DNA of 64,000 nt, from the NCBI GenBank assembly GCA_903944165.1, contig CAJAQT010000125.1:287-64286 (forward strand). The letters are read 5' to 3'. The notes below the pieces were generated by a model that saw only the letters and a program-made list of their open reading frames with translations, made no database searches and was not told the DNA's origin. Position numbers and translations under genes: made by a program. The DNA comes from an uncultured Methylococcaceae bacterium (GTDB taxonomy: Bacteria; Pseudomonadota; Gammaproteobacteria; Methylococcales; Methylomonadaceae). This document shows positions 29,788 through 39,968 of this stretch, in pieces (positions within the stretch are counted from its first letter, which is position 1; each line of letters opens with the position of its first letter).

Positions 29788-30280
29788 TGTCATCGTTTCA
29801 GCGCAACACAGCAGTAAGTTTGATTACCAAAACACCTTATAAAAAAAGCAACAAGCTGATAATAAAAGCTTAAGTGCAATTATCTATACAATAATTTGCC
29901 TTATATTTACCTGCACTCACTAGCTAAGGATGAACTAAATAAACAAAAAAAATTAAAATTAATTCACTATCGTAAAAAAGTAACAAAAGAGATTTAAACT
30001 AACTGAAAACTAGCATTGATGAAATGTCTTTTTATCAAGGTTAATTCATGAGTCACTACCTTTTTAAGTCACCCCATCCTTTAATCAACCTATGTAACGA
30101 CCAACTATAATAATGAAAAAGTCTTATTTATAAATCTACGCTATACTTAAACACTATTAAGTACTGCAAAACCTCAAAAACTATAGTAAAAAATTATATA
30201 TAATTCCAAAAACTTTGAATGTTACAACTTTAACCTTTACAAGTTTTTATTTTGAACAATTGAACATAATGGAGAAAACA

Positions 30281-30643
30281 ATGGCAAGCATTCTTGCAGT
30301 TGACGATTCAGCATCAATGAGAAAAATGGTTACATTCACGTTGAAAAGTGCTGGATATGATGTAGAAGAAGCAGTAGATGGTGTTGATGCATTAGAAAAA
30401 GCACAATCTAAACAATTTGATTGCATCATCACAGATGTGAATATGCCAAATAAAGATGGCATAACACTAATAAAAGATTTACGTGCCATTGCTAACTATA
30501 AATTTACTCCAATGCTGACGCTCACCACAGAGTCGGGCATGGAAAAGAAAATGGAAGGTAAAGCGGCAGGAGCAACTGGATGGATTGTCAAACCATTCGA
30601 TCCTGATCAATTATTAAAAACCTTAAAAAAAGTTTTGGGCTAA
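30281..30643 (+). CDS. cheY: Chemotaxis response regulator CheY
   Basis: ILAVDDS, ITDVNMP, LTT, GWIVKPF; GGAG RBS at 30271 supports the start at 30281. Confidence 0.93.
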   Translation: MASILAVDDSASMRKMVTFTLKSAGYDVEEAVDGVDALEKAQSKQFDCIITDVNMPNKDGITLIKDLRAIANYKFTPMLTLTTESGMEKKMEGKAAGATGWIVKPFDPDQLLKTLKKVLG

Positions 30644-30690: not shown

Positions 30691-32865
30691 ATGTCTATCG
30701 ATATGTCACAATTCCATCAAGTTTTCTTTGAAGAATGTTTCGAAGGACTGGAGGCCATGGAGGCTGGATTGCTGAATCTAAATATAGATGATATCGATCC
30801 AGAAGTGATAAACACCATTTTCAGAGGCGCTCATTCTATTAAAGGCGGGAGTGGAACCTTTGGATTTAATAATGTCGCAGACTTTACGCACATCATGGAA
30901 ACATTACTTGATGAAATGCGTGATGGTCGTCGTCAAGTAACCCAAATAGCAATCAATATTCTTTTGGGTTCAGTGGATTGCTTAAGGGAAATGATCTCTT
31001 CAATACAAAATGAAGAAGAGGTCGATGAATCAAGAGTAGCTCAACATACTGCTGATTTAGATAATGAGTTAAATGGTGTGGCGGAATCAACCCCACCGCC
31101 AAGCCATAAAGTGAGTGCAGAAACAATAATAACTGAACCATCAGAAGTTATATCTGATTCTAGTGAAACCAGCGATACCAATGAAGAATCAGGTTGGAAA
31201 ATTGCTTTTTGCCCTTATCTCGATCTTCTCAAAACGGGTAATGATCCCGTCAGAATGTTTAGAGAACTCTCTGAACTAGGCGAGTTAACATCACTAGCTA
31301 ACATACAAGACGTACCAAGTTTATTCGAAATGGATCCAGAAGAATGTAATATTTCTTGGGATCTTAAAGTAATGGGCGATATTCCACTGGATGAAATTGA
31401 AGAAATTTTTAATTGGGTGGAAGGTGACTGTGAGTTAGATATCCAACCGATTGCCCCCAAACCAGTCAAAAAAATAGCCCCTCCCGTTAGTCAAGCTGAA
31501 CCTGAACTTGACACTGAAGAGACTATCGCAACTCAAGCGAAGGAACCGCAGCAACCAACTCAGCCAGAAATTATTGTTGAACAAGCTGAAGTCAGCAAAG
31601 ACATTGAAGCTATTCCAAAGCCTCCAACAACCGCGCCTAAAGAACCAAATAAAAAGGTACAGCTGGATTCAGATCAATCCAAACTGATCGTACAAGTTGC
31701 CAGCTCAATCAGAGTTGATACCTCAAAAATTGATGCCTTAATAAATATGGTTGGCGAAGTGGTTATCACCCAATCCATGCTTGGCTTGGTTGGGGAAAAC
31801 TTCACTATGGACAAAGTCGATCAACTAAAAAAAGGCCTGGCTCAATTAGAACGCCACACCAGAGACCTACAGCAAAGCGTCATGAATGTACGCATGCTAC
31901 CCATTAGCTTTGTTTTTAGTCGCTTTCCCAGATTGGTTCATGATATAAGCAGCAAGCTAGGCAAAAAGATTGAACTTAAATTGGTTGGAGAAAATACTGA
32001 AATTGATAAATCTGTGGTGGAATTAATCAATGACCCTCTTGTTCACTTAATCAGAAACAGCTTGGATCACGGCATTGAAATGCCCGCAAATCGAATTGCA
32101 GCGGGCAAACCAGAAACAGGAACCATTGAATTAAAAGCCTATCATCGCGGCGGACATATTGTCATAGAAATCATCGATGACGGGCATGGCATGGATAAAA
32201 ACAAGTTAATTGCCAAAGCAGTTGAAAAAGGACTTATCGATGACAGCAGTGTCTTAACAGATAAACAAGCTTATGAATTAATTTTCTTACCAGGATTCTC
32301 TACCGCAGAAAAACTAACTGACATTTCAGGTCGTGGCGTAGGGATGGACGTTGTTAGAAGAAATATTGAAGCCTTAGGCGGAAATATAGAAATTTCTTCA
32401 GAATTAGGTCACGGCACAACCATTGCAATTCATTTGCCACTCACCTTAGCGATACTAGACGGTCAATCAGTAGCGGTCGGCGATGAAACCTATATTGTCC
32501 CTCTTGTTTCTATCATTGAATCAATTAACATCACTGAAAAAATGCTCAATAAAGTAGCCGGAAAAGGAGAAACATTCCGTCTACGTAATCAATACATTCC
32601 CATTATTAGGATGCATAAAATATTTAACGTACAACCAAGCTCCAAATCTAAAATGGGGGAGGGTGTTATTGTTGTCGCCGAAGGTCAAGGTGTTTTGTGT
32701 GGATTATTTGTTGATGATTTATTAGGTCAGCAACAAGTTGTAATCAAATCGCTTGAAGCAAACTATCGTAGAGTCGATGGCGTTTCAGGAGCGACTATAT
32801 TAGGTGACGGCTCAGTTGCGTTAATTCTTGATGTGCCAGGCTTGGTTCGATTTTCAAATCGATAA
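30691..32865 (+). CDS. cheA: Chemotaxis histidine kinase CheA
   Basis: Hpt HSIKGG, dimerisation SIRV, DPLVHLIRNSLDHG, PGFSTA, GRGVGMDVV, C-terminal CheW-like domain. Confidence 0.97.
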   Translation: MSIDMSQFHQVFFEECFEGLEAMEAGLLNLNIDDIDPEVINTIFRGAHSIKGGSGTFGFNNVADFTHIMETLLDEMRDGRRQVTQIAINILLGSVDCLREMISSIQNEEEVDESRVAQHTADLDNELNGVAESTPPPSHKVSAETIITEPSEVISDSSETSDTNEESGWKIAFCPYLDLLKTGNDPVRMFRELSELGELTSLANIQDVPSLFEMDPEECNISWDLKVMGDIPLDEIEEIFNWVEGDCELDIQPIAPKPVKKIAPPVSQAEPELDTEETIATQAKEPQQPTQPEIIVEQAEVSKDIEAIPKPPTTAPKEPNKKVQLDSDQSKLIVQVASSIRVDTSKIDALINMVGEVVITQSMLGLVGENFTMDKVDQLKKGLAQLERHTRDLQQSVMNVRMLPISFVFSRFPRLVHDISSKLGKKIELKLVGENTEIDKSVVELINDPLVHLIRNSLDHGIEMPANRIAAGKPETGTIELKAYHRGGHIVIEIIDDGHGMDKNKLIAKAVEKGLIDDSSVLTDKQAYELIFLPGFSTAEKLTDISGRGVGMDVVRRNIEALGGNIEISSELGHGTTIAIHLPLTLAILDGQSVAVGDETYIVPLVSIIESINITEKMLNKVAGKGETFRLRNQYIPIIRMHKIFNVQPSSKSKMGEGVIVVAEGQGVLCGLFVDDLLGQQQVVIKSLEANYRRVDGVSGATILGDGSVALILDVPGLVRFSNR

Positions 32866-32894: not shown

Positions 32895-33431
32895 ATGAAT
32901 AAAAATGTAACCCAAGAAGTTGAAAAAAAAGATAACGACCATGATCGATTCAGTAACAAAATCGATAATGCAGGTCAATACCTAAGCTTTACTTTAGGCA
33001 AAGAAGAATATGGCGTTGATATTCTTAGAGTACAGGAAATTCGTAGCTGGGAACCCGTATCAAGAATTCCTAACGTACCGCCTTATGAAAAAGGTGTTGT
33101 TAATTTGCGTGGCTCTATCGTGCCGATTATTGACTTAAGAGAACGGTTTAAACTTAAATCAGCAGATTACACATTACTGACTGTGGTGGTTGTTTTGCAA
33201 ATTGGTGATATCAAAAAAACCAGAACGATGGGCGTAGTTGTAGATTCCGTCTCAGATGTCATTACTGTAGATAAAGCACAAATACAAAGCGCACCAGACT
33301 TTGGTACTAAAATTAGTAATGAATTTATTAATGGCTTAGTCTCGGTAAATGAACGCATGGTCATGCTATTGGATGTCGATAAATTACTAAAACTTGAAGA
33401 ATTAGATCAAACAGAAAATTCAGTTTTCTAG
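32895..33431 (+). CDS. cheW: CheW adaptor (copy 1)
   Basis: YLSFTLGKEEYGVDILRVQEIR, GVVNLRGSIVPIIDLR. Confidence 0.95.
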   Translation: MNKNVTQEVEKKDNDHDRFSNKIDNAGQYLSFTLGKEEYGVDILRVQEIRSWEPVSRIPNVPPYEKGVVNLRGSIVPIIDLRERFKLKSADYTLLTVVVVLQIGDIKKTRTMGVVVDSVSDVITVDKAQIQSAPDFGTKISNEFINGLVSVNERMVMLLDVDKLLKLEELDQTENSVF

Positions 33432-33714
33432 CCTTATGTTAGAAATAAGACCTGCTAGTAAAATACTCATAATACAAGCAAAGATACGCAAGCAATTTTA
33501 TAGCGAAATAAAGGCCGAGCTATCGATAGATGTGCTTAGTTTCTTAAACTTACTTACAAATTGTTCACTCAACGCTGATGGCTTATACACAAAGTTAATT
33601 AGATCTCTATAATTAACCTAAAAATCACGTTGATTAAGTATTGAAGCTATAAAAATTCGCAACCGCCTTTATTGAAACGTAAGCATAATGATTTTAATGT
33701 TGCACAAATAAACC

Positions 33715-34236
33715 GTGAAAGCACTCTCTATGACGACTGATACTCAAGCAAATAATAATCCAATAAAGCAAAATCAAATTGAACAATTTCTTACGTTTCA
33801 ACTTGCCGAAGAAGCTTATGGCGTTGATATTCTAAAAGTTCAAGAGATAAGAGGATGGGAAACAGTCCGCGTTATCCCAAACACACCATCTTTCATAAAA
33901 GGTGTATTGAATCTTCGTGGCTTAGTTGTTCCCATTGTTGACTTACGGGAACGTTTTTCTCTTGAAAAAAGTCAATATAATCATAAAACAGTTGTTATTG
34001 TGCTTTGTGTTAAACACTTAGACAGTACTTTTGTGATGGGCATTGTGGCCGATGCCGTCTCCGATGTTTTAGACATAAAAGTTGATGACATTAAAAAAGC
34101 GCCAAATTTTGGTACTAAAATAGATACTCGATATATGCGAGGAATGTACGTTCACCATAAAAATATGATTATGTTATTGGATGTTGACCGACTACTCAAC
34201 CCAGATGAAATTGAGAGTATTGATAACTTGGAGTAA
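33715..34236 (+). CDS. cheW: CheW adaptor (copy 2)
   Basis: FLTFQLAEEAYGVDILKVQEIRG, GVLNLRGLVVPIVDLR; start is GTG 33715 or ATG 33730. Confidence 0.94.
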   Translation: MKALSMTTDTQANNNPIKQNQIEQFLTFQLAEEAYGVDILKVQEIRGWETVRVIPNTPSFIKGVLNLRGLVVPIVDLRERFSLEKSQYNHKTVVIVLCVKHLDSTFVMGIVADAVSDVLDIKVDDIKKAPNFGTKIDTRYMRGMYVHHKNMIMLLDVDRLLNPDEIESIDNLE

Positions 34237-34239
34237 AGG

Positions 34240-35004
34240 GTGAAAGTTATCGCCATAATCAATCAAAAAGGCGGTGTAGGTAAAACTACCACTTCTGCCA
34301 ATTTAGGCTCTGCTATTGCAGAGCTTGGTAAAAAAGTAACTATAATCGACCTTGATCCTCAAGGTCATTTGGCGGTGTCTTTAGGTGTACGAAAAAACCA
34401 AAGTGGTATTGATGAAGTTTTAACTGGCGAAAAATCGATACAACAACAAGTCATCTCCCTTAGCGATAATTTACAGATCATTACGTCTGGATTAAAACTT
34501 AAAGAAATTGAACAGTTGACAGAAAATAGGGCGCATCGCGGCGATTTGTTAAAGAATGCATTACATGAAAGCCTACAAGATCAAGACTATGTCTTCATTG
34601 ATTGCCCGCCGTCATCAGGCTTACTTATTGTCAATGCATTATTTGCTACTGATGAAATAGTCATTCCAATGACTAGTGATTTTTTGGCTCTACAAGGTTT
34701 GTCCCACCTAATGGGCACTATTAAAAAATTTGAAAGTGTATTAAAAAAACAATATATCGCTTGGTTAGTTATTTCCCGGTACACCCCGAATAGAAAAATT
34801 TCAAAACAAGTGCTGAATATGTTGCTGACTTATTTTCCTAAACAGATTTTAGCAACAACGATTAAAGAGACTACCTTGCTCGCGGAATGCCCAAGCTTTG
34901 GGCAATCGATTCTTGAATACAGATCAGGAAGTCGCTCAGCAAAAGAATTTAGAAAACTTGCAATAGATTTTATGGAAGGCAGGATTATGTATGGCAAAAA
35001 ATAA
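34240..35004 (+). CDS. ParA/MinD-family ATPase (chemosensory array positioning, ParC/PpfA-like)
   Basis: Deviant Walker A KGGVGKTT, DLDPQG, IDCPPS, ECPSFG; embedded in the che cluster; GTG start. Confidence 0.9.
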   Translation: MKVIAIINQKGGVGKTTTSANLGSAIAELGKKVTIIDLDPQGHLAVSLGVRKNQSGIDEVLTGEKSIQQQVISLSDNLQIITSGLKLKEIEQLTENRAHRGDLLKNALHESLQDQDYVFIDCPPSSGLLIVNALFATDEIVIPMTSDFLALQGLSHLMGTIKKFESVLKKQYIAWLVISRYTPNRKISKQVLNMLLTYFPKQILATTIKETTLLAECPSFGQSILEYRSGSRSAKEFRKLAIDFMEGRIMYGKK

Positions 35005-35407
35005 TAACACTGTAGGTGATGACAATAATCTAATTGGTTACGATCCTCTCGCGTGGATGACGGAAGAGCTCCTTGAACAAGAAACCGTTGCAGAAGAAGA
35101 AAACACCATTAGCGTACAAGAATTTGAAGTAATTAAACCAAGTGGCTCTATTAAATTAGAAGCAGTGCTTAATATTCAAAATGTCACGCCGCTGCATGAA
35201 AAACTTAAAAACTCGGTTGCAGCCAATGATTTAATAGAAATAGAAGTTAGCGATGTGACGTCAATAGACACTACAACGCTACAATTGCTTGTTGCCTTGA
35301 AAAAGGAATCCATAAAATTGCAGAAAATTGTGATCTTTATTAATCCCTCACCAAGGTTTTTAGAATCAGCTAAATTATTAGGTTTACTTGAAATACTTGA
35401 CGTCTAA
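34991..35407 (+). CDS. STAS-domain protein with an acidic N-terminal extension
   Basis: C-terminal STAS fold (VSDVTSIDTTTLQLL); overlaps the ParA stop. Confidence 0.8.
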   Translation: MAKNNNTVGDDNNLIGYDPLAWMTEELLEQETVAEEENTISVQEFEVIKPSGSIKLEAVLNIQNVTPLHEKLKNSVAANDLIEIEVSDVTSIDTTTLQLLVALKKESIKLQKIVIFINPSPRFLESAKLLGLLEILDV

Positions 35408-35454: not shown

Positions 35455-36294
35455 ATGGCTGTACAAGAAAGAGAGCGTGAATTTAAATTTACCTTCGATG
35501 ATTTTAATTTTCTAAGAACACTATCAAATCAATACTCAGGCATACAGGTCCCTGACGAACGTTTTGACATGTTTTATGCACGTCTATCAAAAAGAATACG
35601 ACGCCTTGGTCTTACTGATTTTAAAGCCTATTGCGACTATTTAAACGAGCACCCAGAATTAGAATTTACTGAATTTATTAATGCCATCACAACAAATTTA
35701 ACCTCTTTCTTCAGAGAAAATCATCATTTTGATTATTTAAAAGAAACCGTAATTCCTGAATTACTGATTAGAAATAAAAGCACTCAAAAAATTCGCGTCT
35801 GGTCTGCTGGCTGCTCAACAGGCGAAGAACCATACTCTATCGCCATTACTTTATTAGAAAATGTTCCAGCAAATTGGGATATAAAAATATTAGCTACTGA
35901 CTTAGACACTGCTGTTTTAAGCACTGCCGCATTAGGCGTTTATACAGATGAACGTGTTACTGGAATCTCAGAAGACATTTTAAAAAAATGGTTTATGAGA
36001 GGTAAGTCTTCTCAATCTGGGTACGTTAAGGTTAATCCGCAATTACAAAAATTAATTAGCTTCAACCAACTAAATCTTATGGAGAAATGGCCAATGAAAG
36101 GTGGATTTGACTTCATTTTCTGCCGTAATGTTCTGATTTATTTTGATCGAGCAACTAAAATTAAATTAGCCCAGCGTTATTCAGATATTTTGGCAGATAA
36201 TTCGTGGTTATTTATTGGCCATTCTGAATCATTAAATCAACTTTCAACTGAACTTGAATTGGTCGCATGTACCAGTTATAGGAAAATCAAGTAA
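35455..36294 (+). CDS. cheR: Chemotaxis methyltransferase CheR
   Basis: TTNLTSFFRE, RVWSAGCSTGEEPYS, IFCRNVLIYF. Confidence 0.97.
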   Translation: MAVQEREREFKFTFDDFNFLRTLSNQYSGIQVPDERFDMFYARLSKRIRRLGLTDFKAYCDYLNEHPELEFTEFINAITTNLTSFFRENHHFDYLKETVIPELLIRNKSTQKIRVWSAGCSTGEEPYSIAITLLENVPANWDIKILATDLDTAVLSTAALGVYTDERVTGISEDILKKWFMRGKSSQSGYVKVNPQLQKLISFNQLNLMEKWPMKGGFDFIFCRNVLIYFDRATKIKLAQRYSDILADNSWLFIGHSESLNQLSTELELVACTSYRKIK

Positions 36295-36299
36295 ATCAA

Positions 36300-36938
36300 A
36301 TGAGTAAAAAGGAAAACATAAACAGCCCTTCCATTACGGGTTTTGAACGAATCAACCGATATTTAGATAATGTCCATGGGGTTGTTGCAGCCAAAATTTT
36401 ACCTGGCGAATACTATGTCACCAAAGAAGATGAGCTTATAACAACCGTTTTAGGCTCATGCATTTCTGCCTGTATCAGAGATAAAGAGTCTGGGATTGGC
36501 GGTATGAACCACTTTATGCTTCCAGTGACAACATCAGACAAAATAAAAAAAAATAATGAAGCCGTGGTAGGAAATGCGACGCGTTATGGAAACTTTGCCA
36601 TGGAACACTTGATTAATACTATTTTAAGCAATGGTGGTAAAAGAAAAAATCTGGAGGTTAAGGTGTTTGGTGGCGGTAAAATCATTCCTACACTTACCGA
36701 TATCGGCATCAAAAATATTGAATTTGTTTTGGAATATATCGATACCGAAGGCTTAAATTTAGTATCGCAAGACCTAGGCAACATTTACCCAAGAAAAATA
36801 ATTTATTTCCCAAAAACAGGAAAAGTAGGCATGAAGAAAATCCAAGACCTTCACAACACAACTATCGTACAAAGAGAAAGACAGTATTTTGATCACATTA
36901 AAAACGCACCTGTAGCGGGTGATGTCGAACTTTTTTAA
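36300..36938 (+). CDS. cheD: Chemoreceptor glutamine deamidase CheD
   Basis: TVLGSCIS, GGMNHFMLP, KVFGGG. Confidence 0.95.
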   Translation: MSKKENINSPSITGFERINRYLDNVHGVVAAKILPGEYYVTKEDELITTVLGSCISACIRDKESGIGGMNHFMLPVTTSDKIKKNNEAVVGNATRYGNFAMEHLINTILSNGGKRKNLEVKVFGGGKIIPTLTDIGIKNIEFVLEYIDTEGLNLVSQDLGNIYPRKIIYFPKTGKVGMKKIQDLHNTTIVQRERQYFDHIKNAPVAGDVELF

Positions 36939-36969: not shown

Positions 36970-37386
36970 ATGAAAAAAATAAAAGTACTCATTGTTGATG
37001 ACTCTTTATTAATTAGAGAGGTGTTAACTGAAATTTTAAACTCTTCTCCTGAAATAGAGGTCGTTGGAGCGGCAGAAGATGCCTATGTTGCTCGTGAAAT
37101 GATAAAACAATTAGATCCAGACGTACTAACTCTTGATGTAGAAATGCCTAGAATGAACGGAATTACTTTTTTACGTAATTTGATGCGTTTACGTCCAATG
37201 CCTGTGGTTATGATTTCAGCCTTAACGGAAAGTAATGCAGAAGTTACGCTTGAAGCTTTATCAATAGGCGCGGTCGATTTCATTGCAAAACCAGTCGTTA
37301 ATGTTGAAAATACATTAAATGATTACTCTGATGATATTATTGCAAAAGTAATTATGGCATCCAAAGCTAATTTCAGGACAACATAA
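36970..37386 (+). CDS. Stand-alone CheB-type receiver domain (no methylesterase domain)
   Basis: 138 aa, about 72% identical (39 differences by hand alignment) to the N-terminus of the adjacent CheB; DD, phosphoacceptor D, S and K retained. Confidence 0.85.
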
Positions 37387-37450: not shown

Positions 37451-38530
37451 ATGAATAAAATTCGAGTTTTGATAATAGATGATTCTGCATTAGTCAGAAA
37501 AATTTTAACTGAAGTCCTCACTTCTTCGCCTGATATTGAGGTTATAGGCACAGCAGCAGATCCCCTGATTGCTAGAGAAATGATTAAACAATTAAATCCA
37601 GATGTATTAACTCTGGATATTGAAATGCCCCACATGGACGGTATAACTTTCTTAAGAAATCTGATGCGTTTACGACCAACGCCTGTGATCATGATTTCAA
37701 CATTAACTGAAAAAGGTGCCGAAGTCACTTTAGAGGCCTTGTCTTTAGGTGCAGTTGATTTTATTTTTAAACCCAAAGTTAATGTAGTCAAAACATTGAA
37801 TGACTATGCTGACGAAATTATTGCTAAAATTAGGGTTGCTGCCAAAGCAAATGTCCGTAATATCAACTACAGACCAGTAAAATCAAAATCTGATGATATT
37901 GTTCCCAAAACAGTTCCATCGCCTAAATCACCTAATACTGACAATTCGAATACCATTATTGCCTTAGGCGCCTCAACTGGAGGTACTGAAGCAATTAAAG
38001 TGGTGGCTAAAGGACTCAACGCTGAAACTCCACCACTATTTATAACTCAACATTTACCCGCAGCATTTAGTGTGTCATTCGTACAACATGTTGACATGGT
38101 CACGGAAATGAAAGCAGGCATTCCTACTCATGGAGAAATTGCTAAAAAAGGGCATATTTACCTTGCACCAGGCGATAAGCACATGTTGGTAGTCAGGGAA
38201 AATGGTCAGTATGTCATTCATTTAAGCGATAGCGACCCCGTCAATAGACACAAACCTGCCGTTGACGTACTCTTTCAATCTATTGCTGAATGCGCAGGAA
38301 AAAATGCCATTGCTATCTTACTAACTGGCATGGGTGCGGACGGTGCTATAGGCATGAAGCAAATGCATGACTTGGGCGCTAAAACACTAATTCAAGACGA
38401 GCAATCGAGTGTTGTATGGGGAATGCCTGGAGCAGCTTATAAGCTAGGCTGCACCGATTATGTATTGCCCATAGACGACATTGCTAATCAAATTCAAACG
38501 TTAATAAAACAACTCAAACACAGCAATTAA
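37451..38530 (+). CDS. cheB: Chemotaxis methylesterase CheB
   Basis: Receiver domain plus GASTGG (Ser), QHL (His), GMGADG (Asp). Confidence 0.97.
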   Translation: MNKIRVLIIDDSALVRKILTEVLTSSPDIEVIGTAADPLIAREMIKQLNPDVLTLDIEMPHMDGITFLRNLMRLRPTPVIMISTLTEKGAEVTLEALSLGAVDFIFKPKVNVVKTLNDYADEIIAKIRVAAKANVRNINYRPVKSKSDDIVPKTVPSPKSPNTDNSNTIIALGASTGGTEAIKVVAKGLNAETPPLFITQHLPAAFSVSFVQHVDMVTEMKAGIPTHGEIAKKGHIYLAPGDKHMLVVRENGQYVIHLSDSDPVNRHKPAVDVLFQSIAECAGKNAIAILLTGMGADGAIGMKQMHDLGAKTLIQDEQSSVVWGMPGAAYKLGCTDYVLPIDDIANQIQTLIKQLKHSN

Positions 38531-38606: not shown

Positions 38607-39215
38607 ATGAACATTCAAACAAAATCTCAATTTGTTGCCGTAGCATCTATTACATCTGAATTAAGTGCGGTCATGGTCGTTGCTAAGGAAATATCATTAG
38701 CCGCAGCTAATGCTAAAGCAATTGCATTTAGAGCGGGAGACAAAGCAAAAGGATTCCAACCAATTACTGATTTCATTAACGAGCTAGCTAAAGAAACAAT
38801 CGAGTTAGTCACCAGTATCAACGTTTACGCACTATCACTATACCAACTCACCGTTAATGAATATCGTAAAACAATAGCCTACAATAAATTTGAACTCATC
38901 ACTGAATTATCAAAAGGCGCCGCCTATGCACGCTCTATGGAAGAGCCTCTTGAAAAAGCGAAAATCACCATGGAAAACTGTCAGCGACAATTTAAACGTG
39001 ATGTAAAACAATTATTAGATCAGCTAGAAGCAGTTATGCATCATGCTAGAGCTGCACGAGTAATTGCTGCAAATTCAAGAATTGAAGCCTCTCAGGCAGG
39101 TGAATATCTACAAAGTTTACAAGCAGTAGCTGAAAGTGTAGATAAAGCAGCACATACCATTCACGATAATGTGCAACGTTGTAGAATCGCATTATCTCTT
39201 TATAGAAATAATTGA
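38607..39215 (+). CDS. Small soluble MCP-signalling-domain-like protein
   Basis: ISLAAANAKAIAFRAGDKAKGFQPITDFINELA resembles the MCP hairpin tip; a second degenerate copy is VIAANSRIEASQAGE; no TM segment. Confidence 0.7.
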   Translation: MNIQTKSQFVAVASITSELSAVMVVAKEISLAAANAKAIAFRAGDKAKGFQPITDFINELAKETIELVTSINVYALSLYQLTVNEYRKTIAYNKFELITELSKGAAYARSMEEPLEKAKITMENCQRQFKRDVKQLLDQLEAVMHHARAARVIAANSRIEASQAGEYLQSLQAVAESVDKAAHTIHDNVQRCRIALSLYRNN

Positions 39216-39239
39216 AACCATAAAGTAAGGCAGTGTCTC

Positions 39240-39968
39240 ATGAAAATGACAAAAATATACGAAGGCTCACATCAATGGATTATGTTTGGTAGAGATGAAA
39301 ACAAGCCTTCAAATATCATAGACAGCAACCAATATGCTGTAAGAACAGCTAATAAATGCTTATTAATGGATCCAGGCGGATCTGAATTATTTGCCCCGAT
39401 GATGGCTGCTATTTTGCACCACGCTCCAGTAGAACAAATAACTGATTTGTTTGCATCGCATCAAGATCCAGATGTGATCTCATCATTAGGCTTATGGGAT
39501 CAAGCCCTTTCAAATGCAAAATTACACGCGCCAGCCCTTTGGGAAGGTTTTATTCGTCATTTTGGTTGTGAATCAATTGAATATGTACCAATTCCAGATA
39601 ATGGTGGAACTATAAAATTAGAAAATATTGAGTTGCAACTGATTCCTGCCCATTATTTGCATTCATCTGCTAATTTTCATGTCTATGATCCACAAGCAAA
39701 AATCTTAATGTCTGGAGATGTAGGCTCTGCATTGGAGCCGGCTGGCACGCCGATGTTTGTAGAAAACTTTGATTCACACATTGAAAAAATGAGATATTTT
39801 CATCAACGCTGGATGCCATCCAATCATGCCAAAAGAGCATGGATTGAACGCGTAAGAAATTTAGATATTGATATTCTTGCTCCTCAACATGGCCGAATTT
39901 TTAAAGGCGATGATGTTAAGCACTTCTTAGATTGGTTTGATGCATTACAAGTAGGTGTTGCAGTTTAA
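39240..39968 (+). CDS. Oxygen-binding di-iron protein (ODP-type metallo-beta-lactamase fold)
   Basis: DPGG, SHQDPD, PAHYLHS..NF, SGDVG, FH.RWMPS, PQHG; 242 aa with no flavodoxin domain, so not FprA. Confidence 0.85.
   Translation: MKMTKIYEGSHQWIMFGRDENKPSNIIDSNQYAVRTANKCLLMDPGGSELFAPMMAAILHHAPVEQITDLFASHQDPDVISSLGLWDQALSNAKLHAPALWEGFIRHFGCESIEYVPIPDNGGTIKLENIELQLIPAHYLHSSANFHVYDPQAKILMSGDVGSALEPAGTPMFVENFDSHIEKMRYFHQRWMPSNHAKRAWIERVRNLDIDILAPQHGRIFKGDDVKHFLDWFDALQVGVAV

Follow-up and report, generated by a model that had tools for sequence, protein, structure and literature searches.

The window analysed here, a stretch of 64,000 nucleotides (nt) of contig CAJAQT010000125.1 from an uncultured Methylococcaceae bacterium, carries at the end of a chemotaxis (che) gene cluster a small gene for a protein of 202 amino acids (aa), P0001, which by its sequence consists of two tandem, diverged copies of the hairpin tip of a chemoreceptor, the protein-interaction region. 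The next gene starts 24 nt past the P0001 stop codon and encodes P0002, an ODP (oxygen-binding di-iron protein family). The mini receptor and a dedicated ODP subfamily are an obligate gene pair. The pairing of an ODP with a sensor-less soluble receptor is already known, and the two-tip form is a new architectural variant of it. In the reading that we prefer, to which we give a probability of about 0.6, the ODP is the sensor of Fe(II)/O2, and its signal passes through a receptor tip, pseudo-dimeric and made of one chain, that docks on CheW/CheA.

Two receptor tips in a single chain

The first tip motif, ISLAAANAKAIAFRAGDKAKGFQPITDFINELA, covers residues 29-61 of P0001 (nt 38691-38789), and the second, VIAANSRIEASQAGEYLQSLQAVAESVDKAA, covers residues 152-182 (nt 39060-39152). 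That the second tip is real is indicated by an internal repeat, by the profile match of the second half, by the in-register alignment of the two halves, and by conservation across the family. Residues 12-80 align with residues 133-200 with a BLOSUM62 score of 71, as compared to 26 ± 4.6 for shuffled sequences (n = 2000; z = 9.6). Profiles of the two halves, built from 124 diverse relatives of P0001, were compared by hhalign with the tips of the methyl-accepting chemotaxis proteins (MCPs) of the same genome. Half 1 matches the MCP tip columns at 93% (E 2.9e-7), and half 2 matches the same columns at 91% (E 9.4e-7). The halves also align to each other in register (71%, E 3.6e-5), with roughly a quarter of the positions identical in this match. 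In a phmmer search, half 1 found the tip of Thermotoga maritima TM14 with an E of 1.5e-4, including 3UR1 and 4JPB, TM14 tip fragments of 85-90 residues crystallised with CheA and CheW. Both tip motifs are conserved family-wide, E160, A161 and L171 being near-invariant.

Against the Pfam profile MCPsignal (PF00015), P0001 scores 24.3 bits, below the gathering cut-off of 34.6, and the match is limited to residues 13-72 (profile positions 33-92 of 172); some of its relatives carry a precomputed PF00015 match. Apart from sub-threshold MCP matches, no named family came up for P0001 in the Pfam and NCBIfam scans. The initial annotation had read two MCP tip-like motifs in a 202-aa protein, which the open reading frame (ORF) at 38607-39215 and the hhalign matches of both halves bear out. 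Its suggestion that each half be checked against MCP profiles gave a divided answer: hhalign recognises both halves, whereas Pfam stays below threshold and sees the first half only.

The two hairpins keep different residues of the canonical tip. Hairpin 1 retains N35, R42, G44 and G49-F50 (the N..RAG...GF part), and hairpin 2 retains E160-A161 (the EA..AGE part) together with L171, which takes the place of the tip Phe. A division of jobs may lie behind this difference, in which the trimer contact and the CheW/P5 contact, shared by the subunits of a symmetric dimer, would be divided between the halves of P0001.

P0001 (about 22 kDa, as estimated from 202 residues) probably has no transmembrane (TM) segment, in line with the initial annotation, as judged from the Kyte-Doolittle scale with no dedicated TM predictor run. 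Its most hydrophobic 19-residue window, residues 8-26, reaches a borderline value of 1.64 and is amphipathic; it lies within the confidently modelled helix 1 and overlaps the stretch that aligns with the MCP N-helix from residue 21. The protein turned out to have no sensor domain, membrane anchor or adaptation region (no search for methylation-site motifs was run), and its arms, each of at most 55 residues, leave no room for a methylation region. The C-terminus, ...LYRNN, bears no CheR-tethering pentapeptide.

Predicted side-by-side arrangement of the tips

AlphaFold2 (AF2) modelling of the monomer, another of the checks proposed at the outset, returned four helices arranged as two hairpins. 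With 43 close sequences the predicted local distance difference test score (pLDDT) was 86 and the predicted TM-score (pTM) 0.77; with 73 diverse sequences, translated from the loci of relatives, the values were 90.3 and 0.81, with the same four helices. The segments of P0001 in the AF2 model are as follows.

Residues 3-47, helix 1
Residues ~44-49, tip 1
Residues 50-101, helix 2
Residues 102-107, loop
Residues 108-161, helix 3
Residues ~162-166, tip 2 (turn at 162-164)
Residues 165-201, helix 4

A Foldseek comparison of both AF2 models with the PDB gave as best matches single-chain four-helix bundles of about 195 aa at a TM-score of ~0.45-0.5; these are generic four-helix bundles and therefore informative on shape, not on homology. 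Residue covariation was obtained by mean-field direct coupling analysis (DCA) of 378 family sequences (effective number, Meff, 165). Among the top 40 inter-hairpin couplings, 19 join residues equidistant from their own tips (background 15%, p ~1e-6), and the count of equidistant pairs is maximal at a register shift of 0. Within the top 60 inter-helix pairs, the non-homologous antiparallel helix combinations add to this support, with 8 of 12 pairs for helices 2 and 3 and 5 of 12 for helices 1 and 4; the pairs of these two combinations are not equivalent repeat positions.

On the basis of AF2 and covariation, the most likely fold of P0001 is one four-helix bundle with both tips side by side at the same end, mimicking the tip of a receptor dimer. 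The single-chain pseudo-dimeric receptor put forward in the initial annotation is thus also the form favoured by the modelling. With helices of ~35-55 residues each, the bundle would be ~7-8 nm long, as estimated from helix length. A closed monomer is favoured by the confident loop at 102-107 and by a Ser-x-x-Pro/Glu pattern, resembling a helix cap, at the start of helix 3.

The ODP partner and the obligate gene pair

By sequence, P0002 (242 aa) is a genuine ODP, for which Fe/O2 binding is predicted. It scores 239 bits against the Pfam ODP family PF19583 (cut-off 27.2, E 5e-71) and matches two solved ODPs over its full length (residues 7-240), 6QRQ with E 2.1e-61 and 6QNM with E 1.6e-52. The former is the solved ODP of T. 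maritima. The four motifs listed in the initial annotation for an ODP-type protein 24 bp downstream are all in place, SHQDPD at residues 73-78, HYLHS at 138-142, SGDVG at 158-162 and PQHG at 215-218, and their cores HQDPD, H..HS, GD.G and QHG are identical between P0002 and both solved ODPs. These are presumably the iron ligands, a role that we take from the family description. A weaker ODP-family match of 91 bits lies in a 434-aa frame of the same genome (G000:C108:2637-3209), which is probably a flavodiiron-type protein and not a second ODP.

An exhaustive HMMER search among 50%-identity cluster representatives yielded 253 relatives of P0001 with a threshold of E <= 0.001, or 173 with E <= 1e-10; nearly all are 195-220 aa long and are matched end to end. 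The DNA of the window is that of a Methylovulum-like methanotroph; its closest protein relatives carry the names Methylovulum, Methylobacter or Methylococcaceae. The loci of the family come from Methylococcales, Cellvibrionaceae, Alteromonadaceae, Thalassolituus, Oceanobacter, Grimontia, Enterovibrio, Pseudoalteromonas, Catenovulum and others. The sequence on the 3' side was long enough to be informative at 152 loci, of which 76 are from Methylococcales and 76 from distant gammaproteobacteria. At 152 of 152 (76/76 in each group), the ODP gene lies directly downstream of the mini receptor gene on the same strand. Of 400 gammaproteobacterial species sampled evenly, 17 (16 genera) carry the mini family, one copy each, and an ODP adjoins the mini gene in 17 of the 17 carrier genomes; an ODP is present in 66 of the 400 species. 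The survey of co-occurrence that had been recommended is thus positive, both for the adjacent ODP and for CheA, discussed below. In a 351-genome sample of the phylum, full-length members appeared only in Gammaproteobacteria, and the other classes gave weak matches only, to the tips of long MCPs. The window locus has the features of an ODP-coupled soluble receptor pair, namely a co-oriented, adjacent ODP gene and an MCP homologue with neither sensor domain nor TM segment.

The ODPs linked to a mini receptor are at least ~50% identical to the window ODP. Ten sampled gammaproteobacterial ODP paralogues with no adjacent mini gene detected were also examined, and nine of them show 36-40% identity to P0002 and have no mini or MCP neighbour, while the tenth adjoins a divergent mini protein of 225 aa (L227, described below). 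This second ODP subfamily (36-40%) was seen at loci L223-L232, in genomes G329, G063, G019, G025, G140, G344, G237, G340 and G289. Two ODP-bearing genomes without CheA (G019 and G025) have no mini protein beside their ODP. As CheA is absent there, these ODPs must signal to something else.

Link to chemotaxis and relation to Aer2

The P0001 and ODP genes are the final two of a CheY-CheA-CheW-CheW-ParA-STAS-CheR-CheD-REC-CheB cluster, directly behind cheB (37451-38530) as had been noted from the start. The features of the cluster are listed below; unless stated otherwise, they were assigned by domain match.

30215-30643, +, CheY-like response regulator
30691-32865, +, CheA (Hpt, dimerisation, HATPase, CheW-like P5)
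32895-33431, +, CheW, first copy
33432-33714, no strand, non-coding gap of 284 nt between both cheW genes; in Methylobacter clusters, an Aer2-like receptor gene at the same position
33715-34236, +, CheW, second copy
34240-35004, +, ParA/MinD-like ATPase within the che cluster
34991-35407, +, STAS-domain protein
35455-36294, +, CheR methyltransferase
36300-36938, +, CheD deamidase
36970-37386, +, stand-alone receiver domain (REC), 138 aa, matching the CheB N-terminus (NCBIfam CheB model positions 1-136, E 4.5e-52)
37451-38530, +, CheB methylesterase (REC + CheB_methylest), ending 76 nt upstream of the P0001 gene
38607-39215, +, two-tip mini receptor P0001, 202 aa (translation, internal repeat, hhalign, AF2, covariation)
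39240-39968, +, ODP P0002, 242 aa (Pfam PF19583; similarity to 6QRQ and 6QNM)

By gene content (CheD, two single-domain CheW proteins and, in Methylobacter, an Aer2-like receptor), the cluster looks F7-like. On the 3' side of the ODP gene lie convergent, unrelated genes for MlaA, MlaC and a radical-SAM protein. Given its place in this cluster, the P0001-ODP pair probably feeds the cluster's own CheA (30691-32865).

The link to chemotaxis is also seen at the level of genomes: CheA is found in 17 of 17 carriers, as compared to a CheA dimerisation domain in 181 of 401 genomes of the class (45%). At the level of loci, the pair lies within a che cluster at 58 of the 76 Methylococcales loci and at 0 of the 76 distant ones, where the neighbours are mostly unrelated housekeeping genes. 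Its presence in a che operon is restricted to Methylobacter/Methylovulum and one other lineage (L227, G320:C16:49100-55800), in which a divergent two-tip protein of 225 aa and an ODP stand in the order MCP-CheW-CheB-mini-ODP-CheR. L227 is from an unrelated gammaproteobacterial family, and on contig C27 of its genome (G320) there is a further mini-ODP pair, which stands alone. Among the distant loci, a YcgR-like PilZ gene is located directly upstream of the mini-ODP pair in Grimontia hollisae (L095:9060-9806), and a PAS-GGDEF-EAL gene is located upstream on the opposite strand in Pseudoalteromonas citrea (L150:6823-9747). Such neighbours may be a hint that the pair is tied to cyclic di-GMP (c-di-GMP) control of motility in some lineages.

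The initial annotation had also suggested that the mini receptor possibly stands in place of the haem receptor Aer2, a suggestion that the evidence does not support. In the cluster of Methylobacter tundripaludum SV96, a 777-aa Aer2-like receptor with the architecture PAS-PAS-HAMP-MCP (L029:2423-4756) is encoded between both cheW genes, and the mini-ODP pair is present as well. At this position between the cheW genes, the window and its 98% relative (L001) have a non-coding gap of 284 nt. In the genome of the window, contig C13 nevertheless encodes an Aer2-like receptor of ~800 aa (G000:C13:13540-15882), which is 47% identical over the full length and ends in the CheR-tether motif DDWEEF. Given the gap in the cluster and this 47%-identical receptor on another contig, the Methylovulum lineage has either lost the Aer2-like gene from the cluster or transferred it elsewhere. 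Their coexistence in the Methylobacter cluster and the Aer2-like receptor elsewhere in the genome speak against a replacement of Aer2 by the pair. The pair is an added input module, not a substitute: M. tundripaludum has both in one cluster, the window genome has an Aer2-like gene on C13, and 76 of 76 distant pairs lie outside che clusters. Four full-length MCPs of the genome (contigs C13, C22, C190 and C51) end in pentapeptides of the CheR-tethering type, DWEEF, EWEEF, DWDEF and GFGEF. These MCPs, encoded elsewhere, are plausible candidate substrates of the CheR, CheB and CheD of the window.

Proposed mechanism and alternatives

In the proposed mechanism, the ODP would bind the mini receptor and change conformation with the Fe(II)/O2 occupancy of its di-iron site. 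In CheW/CheA-P5 lattices, the tips of the mini receptor would dock by themselves or mixed in with full-length receptors, and CheA activity would be altered independently of methylation. The CheR, CheB and CheD of the cluster would serve the full-length, pentapeptide-bearing receptors encoded elsewhere. We infer the direction of signal flow as ODP to mini receptor to CheA. A more ambitious version, which we hold tentatively and at somewhat less than even odds, is that P0001 is a natural asymmetric single-chain receptor dimer, with one hairpin specialised for CheW/CheA-P5 and the other for the trimer or ODP contact; together with the ODP, it would be a complete methylation-independent O2/Fe(II) input that can be plugged into any resident array.

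Several points weigh against the reading of the pair as an ODP-driven input to CheA. The binding of P0001 to ODP, CheW or CheA is a prediction from genes and a single-chain model. P0001 scores under the Pfam gathering cut-off for MCPsignal. The AF2 result is a monomer prediction, and the covariation is equally compatible with an intrachain bundle and with a domain-swapped dimer; the DCA alignment is shallow at this Meff, and the couplings between helices 1 and 3 and between helices 2 and 4 may partly reflect the repeat. In most lineages the pair adjoins no che gene. As for the genomes, the hypergeometric p of 8.7e-7 for CheA in carriers overstates independence, as the carriers share ancestry.

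Two alternatives concern the shape of P0001. It could be a short soluble MCP of the ordinary TM14/TDE2496 kind whose only real tip is the first, the other motif being coiled-coil noise. Pfam and phmmer do report the first tip only, and the length of P0001 is near the 213 aa of TM14. However, half 2 matches the MCP tip by itself (91%, E 9.4e-7) and half 1 in register, the second motif is conserved down to the near-invariant E160, A161 and L171, tip 1 lies at residues 44-49 and not in the middle of the chain as in TM14 or the Treponema receptor, and AF2 places a turn at residues 162-164. The match of half 2, the position of tip 1 and this turn effectively refute the single-tip reading, which is hardly credible any longer. 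The other alternative keeps both tips and makes the protein double-ended: helices 2 and 3 would be continuous, two chains would lie antiparallel by domain swap, and each end would hold one tip-1/tip-2 pseudo-dimer. The contact map expected for such a dimer does not differ from that of the closed monomer, and the DCA therefore fits both equally well. The resulting rod of ~15 nm (an estimate) could connect two CheA/CheW baseplates as the scaffold of a cytoplasmic array positioned by the ParA-like ATPase; receptors with two signalling domains that span two baseplates do exist (DosM; PMC7534058), and the window cluster contains a ParA-like ATPase and a STAS protein. Still, the swapped arrangement is unlikely, in that AF2 breaks the helix at 102-107 in both runs (pLDDT ~93-95 around the break) and the Ser-x-x-Pro/Glu frequent where helix 3 begins looks like a helix cap. 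The bridging role is unlikely as well: a ~15-nm rod is too short for baseplates separated by the ~800-aa Aer2-like receptors of this genome, and most carriers have the pair without a ParA/che cluster.

Two further alternatives concern the function of P0001. As an ODP-controlled decoy, the mini protein would compete with full-length receptors for CheW/CheA and titrate or shut off the kinase. This would suit a protein that keeps the tip and lacks the adaptation region (MCPsignal positions 33-92 of 172 only) and whose gene pair is usually unlinked to che genes, and engineered single-chain tip dyads are known to deactivate CheA (bioRxiv 10.1101/2020.03.27.011866). But the decoy makes the same predictions as the preferred model (CheW/P5 binding, ODP dependence), so that nothing separates the two, and the strong conservation of both tips and of the bundle packing fits lattice integration just as well; we give the decoy a low probability. 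Lower still is the chance that P0001 merely descends from an MCP tip and now serves the ODP outside chemotaxis, as its regulator or chaperone or as a c-di-GMP/PilZ adaptor. For such a role speak the 0 of 76 distant loci in a che cluster, the YcgR-like PilZ neighbour in Grimontia, the PAS-GGDEF-EAL neighbour in Pseudoalteromonas, and the fact that ODPs have also been linked to non-chemotaxis signalling genes (PMC7319448). Yet CheA is present in 17 of 17 carriers against the base rate of 45%, the ODP paralogues of the CheA-less genomes G019 and G025 have no mini protein, two separate lineages have the pair inside che operons, and the neighbours at the distant loci are otherwise unrelated housekeeping genes.

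Comparison with known systems

The nearest known gene pairs are those of Treponema denticola (TDE2498/TDE2496) and T. maritima (ODP/TM14), in which a soluble MCP homologue with no sensor of its own modulates CheA and has genetic coupling to an ODP, according to the passages of PMC7666581, PMC6978683 and PMC7319448 that cite Muok 2019 (PNAS). The same passages describe ODP genes in operons with MCP genes in both gene orders. The window pair resembles these systems in having a di-iron ODP gene next to a small cytoplasmic MCP homologue with neither TM segment nor sensor, in an ODP that is a close full-length homologue of both solved ODPs, and, as we infer here, in the roles of the ODP as sensor and of the MCP homologue as link to CheA. 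It differs in architecture. TM14 has 213 aa with a single tip near residue 110, and the Treponema loci, found by a contig scan seeded with the Treponema ODP, have the ODP gene followed by a 284-aa receptor with a single mid-chain tip. Such one-tip receptors must homodimerise, whereas P0001 has two tips in 202 aa, with arms of ~35-55 residues. The gene order is also reversed with respect to Treponema, the receptor preceding the ODP throughout the P0001 family, and in the samples the family was found only in Gammaproteobacteria.

In the F9 cytoplasmic arrays of Vibrio cholerae, DosM (VC1403) forms a long rod that bears full signalling domains at both ends and bridges two baseplates (PMC7534058). 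P0001 is likewise a soluble single chain with two signalling tips, but it is far shorter, its tips are predicted by AF2 and covariation to lie side by side, it is tied to an ODP, and its cluster looks F7-like, not F9. Engineered single-chain Tar/Tm14 dyads (2 x 71-residue tips) bind CheA and CheW and regulate the kinase, as stated in the passages of bioRxiv 10.1101/2020.03.27.011866 that cite Greenswag 2015, Mowery 2015 and Bhatnagar 2010. These dyads, in which two receptor-tip hairpins are fused in one chain as a four-helix bundle, are the nearest functional analogue of P0001; unlike it, they have identical halves and an added trimerisation domain (foldon), while P0001 is natural, has diverged halves and comes with its own sensor protein. 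Aer2-type PAS-haem receptors belong to the F7 clusters of Pseudomonas aeruginosa, V. cholerae and Methylomicrobium alcaliphilum (PMC7184735). They share with the pair the cytoplasmic O2-related input to a cluster of the CheY-CheA-CheW-CheR-CheD-CheB type. An Aer2-type receptor is, in contrast, of the 36H class and full length, and it has PAS/HAMP domains and a pentapeptide for CheR tethering, none of which is present in P0001.

No description of a natural two-tip mini receptor was found in the literature searched, although the 'MCP-ODP order' group of Muok 2019, known via citing papers, may already include the family, its two tips unremarked. Neither that literature nor the family libraries scanned held a named receptor class of the single-chain asymmetric dimer type. 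How a receptor dimer, asymmetric within the trimer of dimers, switches CheA is still an unsettled matter, and work on it relies on engineered single-chain tips. A single-chain tip that is natural and conserved, whose halves have diverged and which has a soluble sensor dedicated to it, would reveal which tip residues are needed on each face and, if the reading is true, would offer a minimal system from nature in which to work out the control of CheA by receptor asymmetry. Being small, soluble and membrane-free, P0001 should suit structural work on a receptor-CheW-CheA-sensor complex. To judge from the pair, ODP-based O2/Fe(II) taxis is also likely in ~4% of the gammaproteobacterial species sampled, among them Methylobacter-type methanotrophs, many marine Cellvibrionaceae, Alteromonadaceae, Thalassolituus, Enterovibrio/Grimontia and Pseudoalteromonas. 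As the initial annotation pointed out, an aerobe whose habitat is the oxic-anoxic interface is one for which taxis of this kind would be relevant.

Other features of the cluster and the genome

A scan for promoters and terminators around cheB, the mini gene and the ODP gene gave signals no higher than those of shuffled sequence and is uninformative on whether the pair has its own promoter. The receiver-only ORF (36970-37386) just upstream of the full CheB is shared with the Methylobacter loci L029 and L041 and was not detected in loci L060, L063 and L080. Between cheW and cheR, the gene of the ParA/MinD-like ATPase and an overlapping STAS gene occupy positions 34240-35407. This arrangement is reminiscent of other bacteria, in which cytoplasmic chemoreceptor clusters undergo ParA-like partitioning. 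In M. tundripaludum, the STAS protein is longer, with 184 aa.

The same genome has a second chemosensory locus (G000:C165:8700-28600), which comprises a CheA frame of ~1000 aa, two MCPs of ~640 aa in tandem and a 473-aa frame that combines three CheW domains. In this it is similar to the F9 systems with a triple CheW by which Vibrio forms cytoplasmic arrays.

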